Positions 29,474-57,907 of a DNA stretch of 64,000 nucleotides are shown here, one piece after another (the first letter of the stretch is position 1; each line of letters starts with the position of its first letter). Under the pieces are notes generated by a model, which made no database searches, had not been told where the DNA came from, and was given only the letters and a program-made list of their open reading frames with translations. The stretch is from Cystobasidiomycetes sp. EMM_F5 (Eukaryota): assembly GCA_051047955.1 (NCBI GenBank), contig JBPGPT010000002.1:744001-808000 (forward strand). Reading direction: 5' to 3'. The position numbers were made by a program, and so were the translations under genes.

Positions 29474-31639
29474 ATGCGTTACTTTTATGACCCGTCTTCG
29501 TCGTCGTCAGAAGATGAGAGGCCTGAAGCTCCACGGAAGCTGAGCAGTAAAGCCAGAGGAAAGCAACGCGCGATTCAAAGTGACCAGCCCAAACGGCGCG
29601 CAGATTCAACAAATGGAACGAACGAGTAAGCTACAAACGGGGACAACTTCGTCTCAAAGGTAGTTGACATTAATGGAACAGCCGCAATAACTTCCAGACC
29701 GCAAGAAACAGGTTTGCATTCAGTTCAGACTCGTCAAGCGATGATGGCGGAAGCAGTAGTTCCAGCAGTATCAGCTCCGTCAACGACAACGATACACGAC
29801 GAAATGGCAAAGACGACGAACTGCAAGTCTTGAGCGAAACGGATAGCGAAGAAGAAGAGTTTCCTGTAGGGCCATCAGTGCGAAAGGGTGGCCGGCAGCT
29901 GGGGCTATATGCAGGCTACGATGATCCAATCGAGGAGTATACAACGAGGGAACAGAAGAAGGCCAGAGTAAGCATAGAAGATGTTTGCGAGGTTGGAGTT
30001 GTCAGCCATCTGATACGCTTACCCTACTCGAAGCTACGTGCCCAAGAGGCCCACAACAGAGATCTCAATGCTCTACGCGCAATAAGACTGAATGCCTTTG
30101 CGAGAGCCGAGCGGGAGAAGCAGAAGGTACTTGACGACGAAGTTGAATTGGTACGATACATATTTCGGGACCTACCGCCGTCCAAGCTAATATGTGCTAC
30201 AGGTTCGCGTGGTTCTGCAAGACTTTGCAATACGAAGGGCAGCAGATGAGGAACGTGTTGATAGAGAGTTTCGCGAGCGAAATGACCAGCGCTGGAAAGA
30301 GATTAATTCCGCCATTCAGCAGCTAGAGAAGGAAGCGACGGCTGCCGAGAATGCCCGGCAGAAGCAGCTGGAAGCTATATCGAGAGCACAAGCTTTGCGG
30401 GAGGCTGAAGAACGCAAAATCGCCGAGGAAAAACAGGCTTTGGATCGTCAAGCCAAAGAAGCGGCGCAAAGGAAGGAGAAAGCAGAAGCGGACCGTAAGG
30501 AGAATGAACTCAAGCAAGCACAAGAAAAGGAGCGTATTGCAAAGGAAGCCACAGCTACACCGTCACAGCAGTCTCAAGTTACCGCCAGCACTCCTCCTTC
30601 AGGATCTGGTAATAGCCTGTTGGCCGGCAAAGCGCAGTACGAGCGCTGGCTAGCCATAATCAAGGTTGGAAAGCCACCTTCTTACAAATGCATTGTACTG
30701 ACGTACGCCTGCAGACCATGAAAGCGGATGTGCTACCCGCTGTATCGTCCAATCCAAATTGGAGTCGAGCGTGTCGCACGTTGAAACGCAACATCTCCAC
30801 AAGAATCAGTAACATATCTGCGTCATCGTCTGATGTTCGAGCCAAGGTCACGGAAATAAACGCGCTTTTAAATGATAGTAAAAGCACCCCCGAAACTTAT
30901 CAGTGGAGTCTAAATTTGCTCAGCAAGCGCATAATTGGTATGGCGAATATGAACAGCGAGGCCGATCTATCTCCTGTGACTTTTGCGCTGGCGCAAGTGG
31001 TGGTCGCACTCCTCATTGCGGATCATGCTGGCCTGGCAGATATTTTCATGGCACGATTGGTCAAACGCTGTCCGTATATTGTCCCATATTACCCTTTACG
31101 CGGTTCGGTAAGATGCTCTCTCTGTATTGCGCTAAATCACCGCTGAGGAATACTTCGCCGAGTAGATGCCTCTCGAAGATTACAACAAGTTGGTGGGTCG
31201 AAAAGCATCAGAACAGACTGTCAATTACAATCAGCGCATGAGCGGCATTGTCTCGCTGTATGCGGCAATCTGTCAGACCTCACCAGCAGAAGTTCCGCAG
31301 CTACTCGGACAGCCAACGTTTCAGCACGTCTCGCCGTGTCTTCGCCCCGAGGGTGGATGGCGATGGCTTGCGCTTGTACTACGTCCGCCGCTACCTTTGT
31401 TAGATGTCACGCCGCTCTTGCTCTATAATTTCCTTCGAATGTCTGGCGAACGTTTTCATCAGCTGTTTGGTCGACAATTTCTCAAGCTTGTGCAAGCTAT
31501 TGCTATTCAGGGCATAGACAACAAAGCCATTAAATGGAACGATGGTGTCATGGGGGATCTAAGCAAAATTCGAATCATGCTTGGCGAATGGCTGGAAGGG
31601 GGCAAAGTAAGAGGCGCCAACCGAAGTCTATCGGCTTGA
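29474..31639 (+). CDS. GLE1: mRNA export factor Gle1, multi-exon
   Basis: Long coiled coil, then FMARLVKRCPYIVPYYP...YNQRMSGIVSLYAAI...GWRWLALVL..FGRQFLKL. Confidence 0.88.
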
Positions 31640-45231: not shown

Positions 45232-48026
45232 ATGGCGGAAGGTAGCAGCAGTTCGTCCAAGCAGGCCAGCAGAGCGAGAGATAAGGGAAAGGGCAAAGCA
45301 GTGCACGGCAGAGGAGCGCAGGCTCGTCATGTCCGGCGTGAAGGGTATGAAGCTGAGCTGCGACGGCTGGAAGCTGATTTGACGAGATTGGTGAGCTAGC
45401 ATTGAAGAGCGACATGGGATCATACATCCGGCCAAGCTCTGTACTTTCAATGGCACACACGCTGACGCTTACACGTCCAGGACTCGCAAACGTCAACACC
45501 GTATACCAAATTTTCAGACCTACCCCTCTCTTCGGCAACGCTGCAAGGACTGCAGTCCAGCTACTTTACAAACCTCACGCCAGTACAGGCCCGCTCACTG
45601 CCTCATGCGCTGAAAGGCCAGGATGTTCTGGCTTCAGCGAGGACGGGGTCAGGCAAGACTTTGGCATTCTTGGTTCCGTTGCTCGAAAAGCTCCATCGTG
45701 CCAAATGGGGGCCGAACGACGGGTTGGGAGCGTTGGTCATATCGCCCACTCGCGAGCTTGCGGTGCAGATATTCGAAGTACTGCGCAAGATCGGAGCACA
45801 TCATTCATTTTCGGCTGGTCTGGTCATTGGTGGCAAGAATCTGCGAGACGAGCAGGTATGCTATACTCGAGACGTGTGAATATGGGACTTTGGCGAATGC
45901 TAATGAGCACTCCTTCTCTGCAGGAACGGCTGTCTCGCATGAATATCCTGATCAGTACGCCTGGGCGGCTTTTACAGCACATGGATCAAACTATCGCTTT
46001 CGACACAAGCAATGTGCAGATGCTCGTTCTGGACGAAGCAGACCGGTGTCTAGACTTGGGTTTCGCAAAGACCCTAGACGCTATTGTTGCAAATCTGCCA
46101 CCTACTGGACCGGGTGGAAGACAGACATTACTGTTCAGCGCAACTCAGAGCGGTTCTATCGCTTCATTGGCTCGACTTAGCTTGAGAGATCCTGTCTACG
46201 TCAGTGTTAGAGACAAGGAAGCGGGGTCCGAAGTCACAGATGGAGAGGCGTCAACGAGCCAGAGGAGAATAGGTGATTTGGAAACGCCCAAAGGACTAGA
46301 ACAACACTACATGGTAGTCGATCTCGACCGGAAATTGGATATTCTCTGGGGCTTCATCAAATCACATCTCGCCTGCAAGACGCTTGTGTTTATGAGTTCA
46401 TGCAAGCAAGTCCGCTTTGTATACGAGACATTTCGACATCTTCGACCGGGCACGTCTCTGTTGCACATTCACGGCAAGCAGAAGCAGACCAAGCGGCTAG
46501 ACATCTTCCAAAAATTTACCTCGACATCGCACGCTGTCCTTTTCGCTACAGATATCGCTGCCCGTGGGCTAGACTTTCCATCGGTCAACTGGGTGGTCCA
46601 GCTGGATTGTCCGGAAGATGTTGATACCTATGTCCATCGGGTCGGTCGCACAGCACGATACAATAGTAAAGGGAAATCACTGCTCTTCCTGCTACCGAGC
46701 GAACAGGATGGGTTTTTACAGAGGTTGAAAGACAAGAAGCTAGATGAGCTTGTACGACCAATCAAGATCAATCCCAGCAAATCGAGCGTGTCTATCCAAA
46801 AGCAGTTTCAGAGTCTGGCATTCAGGTTCCCGGAAATCAAATTCCTGGCGCAGAGAGCATTCATCTCGTATACGCGATCTGTGCATCTGCAAAAGGACAA
46901 AAAGACATTCAAGTTGGATCAGCTCCCGCTAGACAAGTTTGCTGCAGCTCTCGGATTGCCAGGCGCCCCCAAGATCAAATTTGTCAGCAAACAACAAGCA
47001 GCGGCCAAGAAGAATAAGGAGCGTGATGTCGAGAAGTTGAAAGCCACGCTACGGCAAGACTCTGCCTCTCAGAGTGAAGAATCTGATGGACCTGACGACA
47101 AATATCCAAACGACGATAGCGTGGACGAAGTCGACGAGATAGAGTCAATAGACAGCAATGACGAAGCGGCAGAGACAGAGACTCGACAGCTGGATGGAGC
47201 ACCTACGGAAGACCCTTCAGCTGTTTCTATCAACAAGCCTTTAAAAACTACGAAATACGATAAAATGTATAGGCGGCAGAACCAGGGAGTACTATCTGAG
47301 CACTACAACAAAGTCGTCGAGCATGACGAGGAAGCAAATGGATCGTCACTGCTTCTCGGAGCAGACGATGATCAGGAAGACTTTATTACCCTGGCTCGGC
47401 GACAGCACGATCTTCCCTTAGATCACGATGACAGTCAAAGTATGCACAATGGGATGTCGACCGCTATTGGTGGTGATGAGGAGACTGGCATGGAAGACTT
47501 GTCCAAGCGCCGGCTCAAGATGGGCATGACTAAAAAAGGACTTGTCAAATTGCGCGGCAAAGGGGAGAAACTCATCTTTGATGAAGAAGGACAATCGCAT
47601 GCTCTGTACGAGATGACGAGGGAAGACGCAATCGAGGATGTTGAAGCTGAGAGGCGGCAGTTTCTCGAGAATGAAGGCCAGAGAATGCGCTCTATCGATG
47701 TCGCAGACAAGGCTGCGCAGAAGGAAGCACGACGCGACAAGAAGCGTAAGCGCAAGGAACGCGAGCGCGAAGTGGACGGACGAGATGAGGGTGCTGCTCG
47801 TATTGCTGTGCTAGGTGGGGACAGTGGCGGAGAAGACGACAGCGCAGGACGCGAAGACCAGACGCATCAAGACGATACTGAAGAAGTAGACCACGAGCAT
47901 GATTCAAGAAGGAGAAGCAGCCTGAACTTACATGACGTGGAAACTGCGGAACGCGACGAGGAAGACGCGGAGATTGACCTGGAAGCGCTGGCCCTACAGG
48001 CTCTCCGGAAGAAGGTACGGCGGTGA
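45232..48026 (+). CDS. DBP4: DEAD-box RNA helicase Dbp4/DDX10, multi-exon
   Basis: [75 protein letters not shown]. Confidence 0.95.
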
Positions 48027-50212: not shown

Positions 50213-53200
50213 TCAACGTAATTTCGAGACTTGAGGAATCCTTGCCGGCACAGGTTGCCTTGGTGTGTCGTCTATGGGTTGTGATTGTCTGAATGGCGAA
50301 GTTTGAAGATCCGCCTGCTGCCGAGAGCGCGCGGGTGAGGCCCGACCAGCTTCTAAGTCTTCGTCACCAGCATGACCACCATCCGTCTCGCCATCTTCGT
50401 CGTCTGATGAACCCGACCAACTATCGTAAGACTCGTCCGTGTATTGCGTTTCAGTCTGGTCCTGCCCTCTTGACATTCTTATATCCTCCCTTGACGACCT
50501 ATCGATAGTCGCCAAGCTTTCACTGTATATATTTGCAGTCTTGCCAAAGTCGATACCCGTTTCGACTCCGGGAGTAACGACATTCGAGCCAGTCAGCCCA
50601 GCAGTCGGTTTCCCGTCGTGCGGTGTCTGTTTGTTTGTAGGATGCGTATTGTTGGATTTCGGCAAATCCACTTCACGACCAATGGTGTATACCGTGATGC
50701 TCTTGATTGGCCCAGCATAGTGTGCGTTTCCGTAGAGCATCCAGGTTAGAGCCGAAGCCAGAGCAACGAAGACAAGCACAACGGCCGCATACGAGAAGGA
50801 GGCTAATACCATCAGGAAGAGCATCAGTACATTTTCGGCGGAATGCTCTGTGTTACAGACTCACTGGCGGTGACCGGCCAGTCATTCGGACATGACATAA
50901 ATATAATAATAAGCGAGACGTAGGCCGTGCCAACCCATGCCGCTGGCTTGCTCCAGTTTCGCAACGTCCACTCGTTCCGTCCATCCACATCTAGGGCACC
51001 CTTCTCGCATGTAAGGTAGCAGACGACCGGTATGGAGTATGCAAGGATGATGGAGGCTCCGCAACCTTGCAGCATCAGGCTTGTAGCTATAGCCCGATCC
51101 GTTGCAATCAGCATGAGACTGAGGCAGACTACGAGACAGACTGAGTAAGTAGCCCGAACCGGTAAACGAGAAATACTCAGGTGTCGGAAGAAGTGTGAGA
51201 ATGGAAGAGCGGAGTCTCGTGCCAGTGCCCAGATAAAGCGAGTGCTTGCCAGAAGCTGGGCTGTATCCTGCGCCTTCATCAGCAGTACGATAAGCAAGAG
51301 AATGATGAATGCGAGAGGTTGTGGCACAAGCGTGCTCAGCAGTAGAGCGGGAGCGCCATATGCGTGCGCTTTGGGCGGAGCATCATTCACGACCTCCGGA
51401 AATACTGCCATAATTGCGAGCATAACTGCCCATCCGACAAGGTAAGCGCATGCTGTACTCCAGAAAATTGCTTTTGGGACAGTCCGGGTCGGGTATTTGG
51501 CTTCCTCCGCCAAGTGCGCGGCTACATCCTGGCCAGTGGCGATACTCGTGAGCATCCATCCGAGCATGTAAACGAAACCCTTCGAAGTAAATCCAGTCAT
51601 GTTGACGTATGAGCCAAATATCACGGATGCAGGACTGCGGGCGTAACAAGGGAGATAAGCGCAATTCAGGCAGATCAGATTAGTAGCTGCTCACTTTCGG
51701 TAGCTGTTGCAGGCCAGCACAGAGGCTATAATTATGACGGCAGTAGCGCCAAAAAGAACAGCTGTGGAAGAGGTAGGTCTTTGTCAAAGTTGCTCACCTA
51801 GAGCTCCCTAGGCAATATCACTCACAGACCGATTTCCAGAGATAAGGCGAGCGTCCCGCTGTCGATGCTGCGAGAACTGCGGTCGCGAGAGCGCCGGCCC
51901 ACGCTATGAATATTGTCTTCCAAGTGGTGGGCGTATAGTCCGCATACATAATTACGAGGCCTTGCAAGGTGATGGCAAATTGCCACTCGACCAGCATCTA
52001 AAGTTGGGACACGCTTTCAGATCATACAGAAACCCGTGCTTGGGAAGGATTGCGACCCACCTGTGCCAGTATATGACCACATAAAAGGAAGCTTCCAGTG
52101 AACCACGAGAGGAACCTCGCTAGAGGCCGCAATGAGGGGGATAATCGGCACAATCTAAAGGTCCACGTATACCTGGGATCCAAGCCTGTTAGGCCAGAAG
52201 TTGCGACGAGTTTATACATACACCCACATTGCTCCAGCTACTGGGTAGCTCGATGCAAATTCCGCCATGATGGCAGAGAATATGCACATGAAGAGCCCGG
52301 AGATTGGCCAACCGATAGCTAAGACTGCATATCCGCCATACTCCTTAGCCGTGAACACCCCAAAGAGAGCGCCTGCATATATATTGTCAGCAAAGGGTGT
52401 GCACAGTGAAAGAAAGATGCTTACCTTGCAAAGGCCCGATATTGGCCAGACCCAAAGATGTAAGAGCCCAGAGGTCGTACACTCTCCGCAAGACGCCTTC
52501 GTTTCCCTTGCCGTTGCCATAGCTTAGCACATGCTCCGTTGGCGCAGCAGTGGGTGAGGGAAGAGCGGAAGCGTTCGAGATGTCGCTCTTTACTGGCAGC
52601 ATACCTGCATGTATCACTATACTCTCTACGGCTGCTTCTTCATCCTTGACATCTTTTCGGTCATCATGATGCTTCTTGGCGTTTTTGCTCGTCCGAGCAG
52701 TACCCGCAGCGGTGGCGACAGTGGATGATATGGTGGTAACGGGATTGGAGAAGAGTAGACGACGGCGTTTGGCGGGTGCAGCCCTGACAGGATTGAGACT
52801 TGGATGCTTCCTGGGTGGAAAGAGCTGTCGGGATGGACTGCCAGCCTCTTTGGATGCATCACCCGATTCGAAAGCTACAACGACCAGGCTGTCTTGCTCT
52901 GTCGGGGTCGCTAGGGGAGTTGTGAGTCCCGAAGACGGTGTTCCAGATGATGAGGAAGGTGCCAAAGGTGGCATTCGCGGGCCAGCCTCGAGCAAGTCGC
53001 TGCTCCTCCTAGGGTGCTGTTCGGGTAGATGTCGCCCCAACGACGAGGGTGTCGAGCTCGCTGCCGACGTTGACCGCAGCCTGGTCAGAGGAGTCTGGCT
53101 ATTGGCGTAGCTAATGTCGCCCGCTGTAGTATTGCTGTTTGCTGTCGCTTCCATTCGAGCTTCACAGATCGTATCACGCCGAGACGGCATTGACAGGCGG

Positions 53201-53367
53201 TTCGACGAAGATGGACCGGATAGCCGTTGCGGGCTAAGCCCTTCGCCGTGTCCAGTATCCATCGCTCCAGGTGCCCCCACGCTTTCCATTGGCAGCGCTT
53301 CTCCAGCAACAGCTTGCGCACCTTCTCGCCGATGCCTTTCCCGCCGTAACCGTTTCCACAGGTCCAT
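50213..53367 (-). CDS. APC-superfamily amino acid/GABA-type permease with long disordered N-terminus, multi-exon; start uncertain
   Basis: AEFASSYPVAGAM, AAHLAEEAKYPTRTVPKAI, STRFIWALARDSALPFS, multiple transmembrane segments. Confidence 0.88.
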
Positions 53368-53743
53368 TATTGCTTTTCCCAGCACAGCTATGCGGTATTG
53401 CTTCACACCATCATCATCCCAGTCATACTCTGTCTGGCGCTCATCGGTGGGTATTATCTCGGGATGCGCCGTTTGCCTCCCGACTGGCGTGCCCAAGTGA
53501 GCTATAAATTGCGCGGGTACCAAGATCTTGTAAGCGTAAGCGAATAGCGATATGGCGTCCAAGAAGAACAATAAAACGGGCAACAGTATCCAGCAGATGG
53601 CACGACAGAGCAGATGCTGCACACCACAGATGGCTGCACAGCGACTCGAGCAGGAAGAAGGTCGGCAGAGAAAGATGGGCTGTGAATCTCATTCTAATTC
53701 ATTACATATTGTACAAAACGTGAGTTCGCACCTTAATTGATTC

Positions 53744-53887
53744 GCCCCGCTAGCGTAATGGGTTGGTCTTTTTAGAGCTTCACTTTCCTTGAAGCACACC
53801 TAACCCGCCTTCCTTCGTCAGTTAACGCGTCAGACTTCTAAAGCGAGTCTTATCTGAAGATTGCCGGTTCGAGTCCGGCGTGGGGTG
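53744..53887 (+). tRNA. tRNA-Arg(UCU) with two introns; exons 53744-53761, 53822-53840, 53852-53887
   Basis: Joined exons give GCCCCGC TA GCGT AATGGTTA ACGC G TCAGA CTTCTAA TCTGA AGATT GCCGG TTCGAGT CCGGC GTGGGGT G (73 nt). All four stems pair. A box TAGCGTAATGG and B box GGTTCGAGTCC are present. Confidence 0.92.
53762..53821 (+). other. 60-nt spliceosomal-type intron in the tRNA D-loop
   Basis: GTTGGT donor, CTAAC branch site 53800-53804, CCGCCTTCCTTCGT tract, CAG acceptor. Removal restores the D arm. Confidence 0.8.
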
Positions 53888-53954
53888 TCAAAGAATGCGT
53901 GCAGTCTTGACATGAAGGCAATCTCTCTTTTTGTCATCTATTGTCTTGACGACT

Positions 53955-54990
53955 ATGAGACAGGATGGACGTGGGCATGGAGACTTGCGAGAGCTCTCAC
54001 TGACTACAGCTCTGCTCAGCCGGGCTGATGGGTCTGCTAGATTCAGTTGCGGTCAGTTTTTGGATGCATACGTTTGCATGAGACTCAATTTGTACGGCAG
54101 GTCCCATATCAGTGCAAGCCGCTGTCAATGGTCCACTAGAAGTACGCCTGCGCGATGAAATCGTAGATAGGGCTACCTTCGAGATCAATGTCCGTCCAGT
54201 GCGTGGACTGCCAGGTGCGACTTGCTGCAACTTTTGGCTAGCCCTAGCCGAAGTCATAACTGATTACTCTTGTTCCTTACCAGGACCAGCGACAAAGTCA
54301 CTAGCCAGTACCCTCTCGCATATATTTGAGCCGCTTCTCCTGCTCAACCGACATCCCCGCTCTCTTTTACAATTATCCGTCCAGACACTCGCTCTTCCGT
54401 CCACCAAATTCTCCAAACCCTTCAAGACGTTTGATCAGTTCGAGAATGACCTAGGCGAGGGTACTGCTGGTCATTACGACGCAAAAGACTTTGAAGCGGA
54501 GAGCGTGTGCGAGAAAGCGGCAGCGGTGAATGCAGCTTCATGCGCGCTCATGGATTCGGCAATAGGGATGAAGGGCGTAGTCTGCGCCGTAGGAGTAGCC
54601 ATACTCCCCGCTCGAAATACGTCGAGGCAGGATGATGAGGACGATGAAACAGATACCGGAATGGAGGGTGTGAACGATACTACCGCACATATCGTTCTCG
54701 ATCCGTCGCCAGAGGAAGAAAGGGACGCAAGGTGTACAATGTGCATAGCATTCTCTTTCGGTGAGCGCCAAGGTGGACAGGAAGGAGACGTCTGTCTGCT
54801 AGACATGAGCAGTGGGACGTGCCAGGAGGCAGAGGCGAGTTTGCACAACACAGTCGACATCGGAGACACCACGGCTAACGTCTGACTCGCGTTTCAGCTC
54901 GTTGAGGCAATCGAAGTCGCCAGAACAGCTTCACAATCCATCTTGGCATTCGTAAGACAAAGTCAAGAACATCGCTACCTGGATTCATGA
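53955..54990 (+). CDS. RRP46: Exosome core subunit Rrp46/EXOSC5, multi-exon (last intron GC-AG)
   Basis: LSRADGSARF..G..VQAAVNGPLEVRLRDE..DRATFEINVRP, HPRSLLQLSVQ, AAAVNAASCALMDS. Confidence 0.9.
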
Positions 54991-55884: not shown

Positions 55885-57907
55885 TCAATCAAAGTCGACT
55901 TCTGGCACATCATGACCTTCCTCTTCCCATTCCTCCAATCTTCCTCCGCCTTCTAGGCCAGGGAACAGCTTGGTAGCACCCGAAGCTATAGCAGGTGCCT
56001 TCTTGGAGAGATACCTCAGCTCCGCCCATTCTCGGACAAGTTCAGCAGCCTTGTAGAACTTCTTTGAAGAGTACTTTTTGTAAAAGTTTGGGTGCTCGAC
56101 TGGTTCGCCCGGCTGCTGAGATCTACGCAAGACATAGTCGAGCATCAACTGTGCGGTAGGCAAGATCTCATCTTGCGAGTAGGTCGAATAGTGGACAAGG
56201 TTGGGGTGCCACTCTCCCCTCTTCAAGATCTTGCGCGCGAGCCACATGCCCGCTGCAGCAATGAGCGAGGGCGGCTTGGATAGGAAACGTCGCTCAACAA
56301 CGCTCATCTCGAGAAAGTACTTTGCGACTGTGCGAGTCTGAATGTCGTAGCCGTCAGCTTTTGAGATGCGGCGGAGGAAGTTGATGGGATTTGGGTATGA
56401 CAGATTGAAGTCGATTTGCTTGAGGACGTACCGCTCAGCAACGAGCATCTCTTCATCAGAGTAGCCACCATCCGTCATGTAGAGAAACGACGAGACCGAA
56501 GGGCACAGGACCTCCTCGTACTTTGAGGCAATGAACAAGCAGACGGTGCCTACCAGCTGAAATTTGAGCAAAGCGACTGTACGTAGCGAGAGCAAGCGAT
56601 CGAGGATGTTGATGGCCAAGAAGATGGTCTCTGGCAGTAGGCGGAATTTACCATGCACCTCAATAAGCCAATCGACCAGGATGCTTCTCATCTTCCACGT
56701 CACTTCGCTTTGACGATTCATGTAATGTGCGTCAGCCATGGTGGTCATCTGCGCAGTGTGTGTCAGACCCAGCTTTACCCATGACTGCGACTTGCGTCAT
56801 ATGTTTGTTGCCTCACCTCCAAATCCTTCATGTAATCATGAATCTCTCTAACATACTCCGAGACCATTAAAGGATCCTCTTCGTCGCCTAGATCGAGGTC
56901 TTCCCATCCGTAATCCTTCGGCAAATCTTCGTCGACATAATCGTCTTCATCCTCATCCTGTTCAATCTTGGCTTGGCTCGTAGTGGCAATGGCAGTAGCG
57001 GTCTTTGACTTTACATCCGAAACAAGTGGATCTTCTGGATCAGATGCTCGAAGCCTCTTGCTTCGTCTCCTCTCAACTCGGGAAACAGCGCCTCCCTCGT
57101 CACCCTGATCGACCCAGTCACCATTGGAGGCAGTAGACGTAGTCTGGCCATCATCTACTTCTGCCAACTCCCGCTTGGCAGCAGCTCGTGCCAGTCCGGC
57201 ATTCTTGCTCGTTCGTCTCCGCAAGACTGGTCCGCTTGTAGACGCAGTCGTCGTCTCGGTAACAGTCAGTGCAGCAGCCGCAACCTTGACAGACTGCTTT
57301 AAACCTGCATTCTTGCTCGAGCCGACGATACCGACATTGCTTGTAGACTGTCGCGGAATATTTGTTGGTCTGCCGGCCAAGACGTTGGATCGGACATTGA
57401 CAGACGACGAAGCTGCTGTAGCTGCTGCAACGACGACTGAAGCGCGCAAAGACTTGATTGGACGCTTATTGTCGCTGGTAGCCACATTTGCAGTATTTGT
57501 ATTCTCATCCATAATCATGTCTCCATCTGCATTCTTGCCAATTGATGATCGGGTTCGGGGACGGCTGGCTGCGACTGGCTTTCCAGCCGTAGAGAGCTGC
57601 GTGGACGCAGCCGTCGACGCGACTTGCTTCTTGTCGTTGATGTTTCCGCCACCCTGTTTACCAACATGTACCTTGTTGGAATGATCGGCCAGAGCCGTTC
57701 TTTTACGTGCCAGCGGCGCAGTGACCGTGGCAGCTGGCTGTGAAGTATACAACGTCAGCAAAGGGGCTGATGTAGTGCGGTACTGCTGCACACCTTTCCC
57801 TTCAGTGCCAGTCCAGCGTTCTTTGTACTTGCTCCTGTTGCCGATACTGTCCTATTTTCATCTCCTAGGGCAGTAACGGCAGCTCTAGTCGTTCTACGAG
57901 TCTGCAT
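55885..57907 (-). CDS. Second G2/M B-type cyclin, 3 exons
   Basis: D-box RTALADHSN, EDPLMVSEYVREI, MRSILVDWLIEVHGKFRLLPET, KFQLVGTVCLFIASKYEE, PNPINFLRRISKAD. Confidence 0.95.

Follow-up and report, generated by a model that had tools for sequence, protein, structure and literature searches.

We found that a complete tRNA-Arg(UCU) gene on the plus strand of the 64-kb window (the whole stretch of DNA that was analysed) is divided into three exons by two inserts, one of which has the sequence hallmarks of a spliceosomal intron. The downstream insert is an ordinary short intron of the type removed by the tRNA splicing endonuclease. The upstream insert is 60 nt long, lies in the D-loop between G19 and U20, and is bounded by the signals of an mRNA-type intron. 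The observation that the tRNA gene is split, made earlier in a sequence-only reading of this locus, is confirmed, and the spliceosomal interpretation put on it is partly supported by the features described below. To judge by its sequence, the insert is very probably a spliceosomal-type intron. The reading that we prefer goes one step further, and we give it a probability of about 0.45: this would be a real tRNA-Arg(UCU) gene that acquired a U2-dependent GT–AG intron in its D-loop and is spliced to a working tRNA.

The layout of the gene, as read from the sequence, is given in Table 1 together with the neighboring elements that bear on its expression. The claim that the first 18 nt of a tRNA are separated from the rest by 60 nt (53762–53821) is borne out by the sequence. 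Downstream of the D-loop insert, positions 53822–53887 read TTA ACGC G TCAGA CTTCTA..TCTGA AGATT GCCGG TTCGAGT CCGGC GTGGGGT G, where the dots mark the 11-nt intron. When both inserts are removed in silico, ARAGORN calls a tRNA-Arg(tct), and the cloverleaf is the minimum free energy (MFE) structure of the resulting 73-mer, at −29.5 kcal/mol. The spliced cloverleaf carries U8, A14, G18 and G19, A21, U33, the G53–C61 pair, and TTCGA, and all of its conserved tRNA positions and stem pairs are intact. It had been stated that removal of the D-loop insert restores a 73-nt cloverleaf. The D stem is indeed restored, but this removal by itself leaves 84 nt; the length of 73 nt is reached only when the 11-nt intron, which the sequence-only reading did not mention, is taken out too.

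Table 1. Elements of the tRNA-Arg(UCU) locus and two protein genes of the window used to place the host (window coordinates).
Feature	Position	Strand	Description
Dbp4/Hca4-like DEAD-box helicase gene	45378–48023	+	
Consensus donor GTGAGT	53720–53725	+	24 nt upstream of the tRNA; from the list of composite signals
tRNA-Arg(UCU) gene	53744–53887	+	complete; three exons and two inserts
Exon 1	53744–53761	+	GCCCCGC TA GCGT AATGG, tRNA positions 1–19: acceptor 5′ strand GCCCCGC; U8 A9; D-stem 5′ strand GCGT; D-loop AATGG (A14, G18, G19)
A-box-like sequence TAGCGTAATGG	53751–53761	+	within exon 1
D-loop insert, spliceosomal-type	53762–53821	+	60 nt, between G19 and U20
5′ splice site GTTGGT	53762–53767	+	insert start
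T5 run	53769–53773	+	inside the insert
Branch site CTAAC	53800–53804	+	A53803 lies 18 nt from the insert end
Pyrimidine tract	53805–53816	+	CTAAC is followed by CCGCCTTCCTTC
3′ splice site CAG	53819–53821	+	insert end
Exon 2	53822–53840	+	D-loop TTA; D-stem 3′ strand ACGC; G26; anticodon-stem 5′ strand TCAGA; anticodon loop C32 U33, anticodon TCT, A37
11-nt intron AAGCGAGTCTT	53841–53851	+	canonical 37/38 position; tRNA splicing endonuclease type
Exon 3	53852–53887	+	A38; anticodon-stem 3′ strand; variable loop AGATT; T arm; acceptor 3′ strand GTGGGGT; discriminator G73
B-box GGTTCGAGTCC	53866–53876	+	T arm of exon 3; sole B-box match in the window
First downstream T run (T5)	53928–53932	+	41 nt after the tRNA 3′ end (by eye)
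RNase PH-like (exosome-subunit-like) gene	53955–54882	+	ATG at 53955, 68 nt after the tRNA end, same strand
B-type cyclin gene	55888–57851	−	

ARAGORN, a B-box search, and Rfam agree that this gene is the sole tRNA-like element in the 64-kb window. An Rfam scan by E-value over the whole window returned no other structured RNA; a SNORD49 match on the minus strand (E 0.54) was set aside as noise. AGA accounts for 45 of the 392 arginine codons in the ten longest open reading frames (ORFs) of the window. The genome must therefore encode a working tRNA-Arg(UCU), at this locus or another.

The splice signals of the insert had been described as a start at GTTGGT, a CTAAC that places its A 18 nt before the end, a tract of pyrimidines, and CAG as the last bases, and all of them are present. 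The composite GTNNGT..CTAAC..YAG is by itself not rare, as it occurs 15 times anywhere in the window against a mean of 10.2 in 30 shuffles, and the significance of the insert thus rests on its fixed borders. These borders are set by the tRNA fold, with a one-base shift that gives the same product as the sole leeway, and the splice signals fall exactly on them. We found that only two of the 127,880 60-mers of the window carry the strict set of signals (GTNNGT, CTAAC, YAG), the insert being one of the two, and that 19 of the 127,880 carry a relaxed set (GT, G at +5, CTRAY 8–30 nt from the end, and a terminal AG). On the exon side, 11 of the 127,964 18-mers on both strands of the window are able to pair with the 3′ strands of both the acceptor and the D stem (7 + 4 bp). 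The real exon 1 is the single one of the 127,964 that combines both pairings with U8, A14, and GG. The split-tRNA pattern is thus above chance. The insert is predicted to form an internal 6-bp hairpin. A search of the 64-kb window for copies of it, as an introner-like element would leave, gave no match longer than 13 nt besides the insert itself.

Given that the insert had been said to match the introns of the window's protein genes in size and signals, we compiled a local intron set. Coding-like frames were picked by a score for codon usage, with the ten longest ORFs as the training set, neighboring frames were joined, and an EM procedure chose one GT/GC–AG candidate per frame junction, which yielded 43 candidates. 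Fifteen of the 43 were retained, namely those that start with GT, are no longer than 100 nt, and have a CTRAY 7–40 nt from the end. An earlier inference, in which all ORFs of at least 70 or at least 110 amino acids were joined before the EM step, was overrun by spurious frames and was discarded. Compared with the 15 inferred introns, the insert is of typical length (60 nt; 46–78 nt with a median of 57 nt in the set) and has the G at +5 that is found in 14 of the 15, the T at +6 found in nine, and the terminal CAG found in 12. The T at +3 is shared by only two of the 15, which makes GTTGGT a sub-optimal donor. The distance from the branch A to the 3′ end is 18 nt in the insert, with its CTAAC, and 8–30 nt in the set; this branch-site comparison is partly circular, as the 15 introns were selected for CTRAY, whereas the length and donor comparisons are not. 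The claimed match in size and signals holds up in the comparison with this set. The GTTGG donor noted earlier at 30665 was also recovered, as the start of a 50-nt intron (30665–30714) joining two coding-like frames. GC donors appear to be in use in the window as well: the last intron of the RNase PH-like gene (54838–54897) seems, by eye, to start at a GC donor, GCGAGT, and to have CTAAC as its branch site and TTTCAG at its end, and the EM procedure also picked a GC donor in the cyclin gene, at 56749–56795.

In the reading that we prefer, the intron would have been inserted into the variable part of the D-loop, and the ordinary 11-nt endonuclease-type intron at 37/38 would have been retained. 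The gene could be transcribed by Pol III via its A and B boxes, with read-through of the T5 run in the insert, or by Pol II, either from a shared divergent promoter or within the 5′ leader of the RNase PH gene, whose ATG follows after 68 nt. We slightly prefer Pol II because of the T5 run in the insert and the lack of a strong terminator nearby. The spliceosome would then release the 60-nt insert as a lariat with its branch at A53803 and join G19 with U20, after which RNase P and RNase Z would trim the ends and the Sen endonuclease and tRNA ligase would remove the 11-nt intron. A single 144-nt precursor would require both nuclear splicing systems. We infer these four steps from the sequence anatomy, which is what we observe. 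That the maturation of this nuclear tRNA actually needs the spliceosome, by way of a 144-nt precursor handled by both systems and possibly of a Pol II transcript shared with the exosome-subunit gene, is a tentative proposal to which we give somewhat less than an even chance. The intron itself would most likely have originated by reverse splicing into the pre-tRNA, followed by reverse transcription and recombination. The same origin has been proposed for the introns of U6 and other small nuclear RNA (snRNA) genes, among them those of Rhodotorula hasegawae, a member of Pucciniomycotina.

Several observations speak for a working tRNA. The exons are flawless, the splice signals sit at the exact borders, the insert matches the local introns and occupies a tolerant D-loop site, AGA codons are used, the G1·U72 wobble recurs in a Saccharomyces-type tRNA-Arg(UCU), spliceosomal processing of Pol III transcripts has precedents, as do mRNA-type introns in non-coding RNA genes, and the host is Pucciniomycotina-like. 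Other observations speak against it: the T5 run in the insert, the sub-optimal GTTGGT donor, the pairing of the donor in the MFE fold of the precursor, and the competing GTGAGT at 53720. Any newly inserted intron is precisely removable, so that the exact restoration of the tRNA is no proof of function.

The surroundings of the gene are important to this question. The tRNA gene sits in about 270 bp between an ORF on the minus strand (52390–53688) and the RNase PH-like gene on the plus strand. The protein predicted from the latter matches Pfam RNase_PH with 22.1 bits (E 2.2e-4), under the cut-off of 25.5 bits, and its gene has introns, placed by eye, at about 54052–54100 and about 54217–54286. 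The minus-strand ORF has 433 codons and is coding-like, with no Pfam match, and no ATG occurs within about 105 codons of its beginning; the actual start codon, or a first exon, may be close to the tRNA locus.

Runs of at least five T residues terminate Pol III, with an efficiency that depends on the species. The A-box-like and B-box sequences of the tRNA gene are intact and 104 nt apart, and the T5 run inside the insert equals in length the T5 run downstream of the gene. Up to the next gene, the latter is the sole T run that could serve as a Pol III terminator, and no run of more than five T residues lies downstream of the tRNA gene. The T5 run in the insert could stop Pol III, in which case few Pol III transcripts would extend beyond about 30 nt. 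The layout is an unusual one for Pol III and suits either a locus crossed by Pol II or a copy that no longer works. In addition, the consensus donor GTGAGT upstream of the tRNA, combined with the branch site and acceptor of the insert, defines an alternative 102-nt intron (53720–53821) whose removal discards exon 1. To judge by sequence, this stronger donor could compete with GTTGGT, and its use would destroy the tRNA. An ORF on the plus strand (53552–53719, ATG at 53552) stops exactly at this donor. We rejected it as a gene, as it has no Pfam match and would gain only 11 further codons if spliced to 53822.

These features lead to the principal alternative, which we regard as possible, at distinctly less than even odds. 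The locus may be a dead or dying tRNA copy that recently gained a spliceosomal-type intron in DNA crossed by Pol II, for instance in the leader of the RNase PH gene or in a promoter-associated RNA. Other intact Arg(UCU) genes would serve the cell, and the exons would be perfect only because the event is recent. The poor layout for Pol III (a T5 run within the insert and a lone T5 run 41 nt past the 3′ end), the protein gene that begins on the same strand 68 nt downstream, and an upstream GTGAGT able to use the acceptor of the insert all suit a dead copy. Insertions in the D or T arm of eukaryotic tRNA genes are, moreover, usually taken for pseudogenes, according to the Yoshihisa review, which makes an exception for the BHB-type (bulge-helix-bulge) introns of nucleomorphs and C. 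merolae (PMC4090602). Against a dead copy, we note that no conserved position or stem pair has been damaged and that the canonical 11-nt intron is still present and well formed. The 64 kb show no back-up copy of the kind that this alternative presupposes, the split gene being their only tRNA-like gene, and the AGA codons are in use.

We predicted the structure of the 144-nt precursor. The MFE fold keeps the acceptor and T arms and pairs the donor region with the branch region. When all four stems of the cloverleaf are forced, the predicted energy is −41.9 compared with −44.6 for the MFE fold, a cost of 2.7 kcal/mol. The insert site is the structurally tolerant 19/20 region of the D-loop, and by these predictions the insert could protrude from the D-loop of an otherwise folded pre-tRNA.

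A second alternative, which we consider improbable, is that the tRNA splicing endonuclease removes the insert as a non-canonical intron, guided by a relaxed bulge-helix-bulge (BHB) motif as in Cyanidioschyzon, nucleomorphs, and archaea, and that the GT..CTAAC..AG signals of the insert are coincidental. A BHB-like arrangement does exist at the insert, in which UAA and UUA form the exon helix, UGG and CAG the bulges, and GUUG and UCGU the central helix, and cuts after the second base of each bulge would give the same mature sequence. BHB substrates can be cleaved by eukaryotic endonucleases (PMC4090602). However, the arrangement is the best found with all cut offsets tried and reaches six of seven pairs, a level of at least six of seven that was also attained at 1,006 of 20,000 random site pairs (5%), and its central helix consists of three G·U pairs and one mismatch. 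The motif is absent from both the MFE and the centroid folds of the precursor. The earlier statement that no BHB motif is visible thus largely holds, given a best arrangement that 5% of random site pairs equal or better, and a BHB motif at the insert is not supported by the modelling. This alternative also leaves unexplained the full set of splice signals at the exact borders (2 of 127,880), and the fungal Sen enzyme is described in that review as measuring, like a ruler, from the mature domain to the 37/38 site (PMC4090602).

Standard tRNA finders had been expected to miss or truncate a gene of this kind, and they did. On the genomic sequence, ARAGORN reports a bogus tRNA-Phe(aaa) at 53806–53889, and the Rfam model RF00005 scores 21.8 bits, with nothing at the gathering score of 29. 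Such a sub-threshold Rfam score is to be expected if the gene is split. The Rfam alignment runs end to end over 53807–53887 and borrows a poor substitute for the 5′ half from the last part of the insert. This 3′ end (53806–53821, GCCTTCCTTCGTCAG) loosely resembles the 5′ half of a tRNA, a likeness that is probably a by-product of the pyrimidine tract. This is why both programs align a contiguous, defective tRNA. When the D-loop insert alone is removed, ARAGORN still miscalls a Phe(aaa), as it takes the 11-nt intron for an extra arm; it gives Arg(tct) only with the 11-nt intron removed. The contiguous alignments, together with an Arg(tct) call that uses this contiguous 5′ half when only the 11-nt intron is removed, could be taken to mean that there is no split and that the tRNA is a contiguous element (53806/7–53887/9) preceded by a chance 18-mer, but we consider this highly improbable, as that element falls short of the Rfam threshold by the score given above, has an acceptor stem with one mismatch and several wobbles, a 3-bp D stem, and neither G18G19 nor A14, and leaves an upstream 18-mer that is unique among 127,964.

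We found no description of a spliceosomal intron in a tRNA gene in the full-text literature outside the subscription journals. This agrees with the statement of the sequence-only reading that no case was known, and with a 2018 review of U6, which gives U6, U2, U5, U1, and rRNA as the non-coding genes with spliceosomal introns (PMC5855946). According to that review, mRNA-type introns interrupt the U6 genes of many fungi, among them S. pombe and Rhodotorula hasegawae, and in the latter also the genes for U1, U2, and U5, for which it cites Tani & Ohshima 1989/1991, Takahashi 1993/1996, and Canzler 2016 (PMC5855946). These genes provide the precedent both for mRNA-type introns in non-coding RNA genes and for Pol III transcripts that are spliced by the spliceosome (PMC5855946). 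Like them, the tRNA-Arg gene combines a small structured RNA with a short intron that has canonical splice sites at both ends and a canonical branch site. U6 offers a parallel in expression, as its Pol III transcript is processed by the spliceosome, and its intron is presumed to have originated by reverse splicing. The tRNA is not part of the spliceosome, so that nearness to the catalytic center cannot explain the insertion, and, unlike the snRNA genes, the tRNA-Arg gene also bears an endonuclease-type intron. The splicing of S. pombe U6 has been demonstrated, whereas the tRNA-Arg insert is known from its sequence.

Spliceosomal introns occur in nuclear rRNA genes of lichen-forming ascomycetes (Bhattacharya et al. 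2000, as cited in PMC5855946). As in the tRNA-Arg gene, a spliceosomal-type intron there interrupts a gene for which Pol II is not the usual polymerase; in contrast, those introns are in rRNA, in Pol I transcripts, and in Ascomycota, and here the gene is a tRNA gene in another fungal phylum. Non-canonical introns of the BHB-dependent type are found in the D and T arms of tRNAs in archaea, Cyanidioschyzon merolae, and nucleomorphs (PMC4090602; PMC3978253). The tRNA-Arg insert resembles them in lying outside 37/38 in the D region, in coexisting with a canonical intron, and in being overlooked by standard finders. Those introns are cut by the endonuclease, whereas the insert described here has no convincing BHB and has the borders GT..CTAAC..CAG. 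No fungal intron of the non-canonical BHB type was found in the full-text literature outside the subscription journals, and the report of Soma 2014 mentions spliceosomal introns for protein genes only (PMC3978253). For the Pol II route, one of the two considered above, the tRNA-Sec of Trypanosoma brucei, which is transcribed by Pol II (PMC2943599), sets a precedent for a functional nuclear tRNA made in this way. The T. brucei transcript is polycistronic and tRNA-Sec has no intron, in contrast to tRNA-Arg, and Pol II transcription of the tRNA-Arg locus is our proposal.

In a 2025 paper, the spliceosomal, tRNA, and XBP1/HAC1 introns are called completely unrelated, and the spliceosomal introns are assigned to mRNAs and other Pol II transcripts (PMC12530127). 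If the preferred reading is true, no earlier tRNA would be known to require the spliceosome, and the boundary between the nuclear intron types would be crossed. The range of mRNA-type introns in non-coding RNA genes would extend beyond snRNA and rRNA, the locus would make it possible to examine how reverse splicing adds an intron to an abundant RNA from outside the spliceosome, and the question would be raised of which polymerase makes the precursor. It would also reveal a blind spot in tRNA annotation, with ARAGORN and Rfam both failing here. As split tRNA genes would escape finders of the tRNAscan type, they may be commoner than is apparent in Pucciniomycotina and in other lineages that gain introns.

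The proteins encoded in the window bear on the identity of the host. The best named relatives of the B-type cyclin are from Rhodotorula graminis (68% identity), Cronartium (62%), and Melampsora (56%), and those of the Dbp4/Hca4-like helicase are from Sporobolomyces, Rhodosporidiobolus, and Rhodotorula (about 50%). In public assemblies, identities of 60–77% are reached for the window's proteins. A look-up by sequence features pointed to fungal cyclins only. As the best named relatives of these two proteins, among Microbotryomycetes and rust fungi, are only 50–68% identical, the lineage seems poorly sampled, and the host seems, by its protein sequences, to be a basidiomycete of a Pucciniomycotina-like lineage. 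Rhodotorula (Erythrobasidium) hasegawae, the classic case of mRNA-type introns in the U6, U2, U1, and U5 genes, is also a member of Pucciniomycotina.

We also looked for relatives of the gene in metagenome, prokaryote-genome, and viral contigs, which are collections with few fungal genomes and silent on conservation. The pattern of the split gene gave no match in any of the three, and a pattern for the T arm gave none in the prokaryote-genome and viral contigs, where fungal genomes are likewise few. A pattern for the anticodon arm gave 61 matches in 60 metagenome loci; none of the 61 is a relative of the split tRNA-Arg gene, a result that, given the few fungal genomes covered, says nothing on conservation. 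Eleven of the 61 were dismissed as chance matches. The other 50 are tRNA-Arg genes that have no intron and that, by eye, are mostly of Saccharomyces or of phage or virus type, and their D arm is uninterrupted in 48 and cut by the contig end in two. The G1·U72 wobble of the tRNA-Arg(UCU) described here is shared by the aligned Saccharomyces-type tRNA-Arg(UCU) from these metagenome matches.
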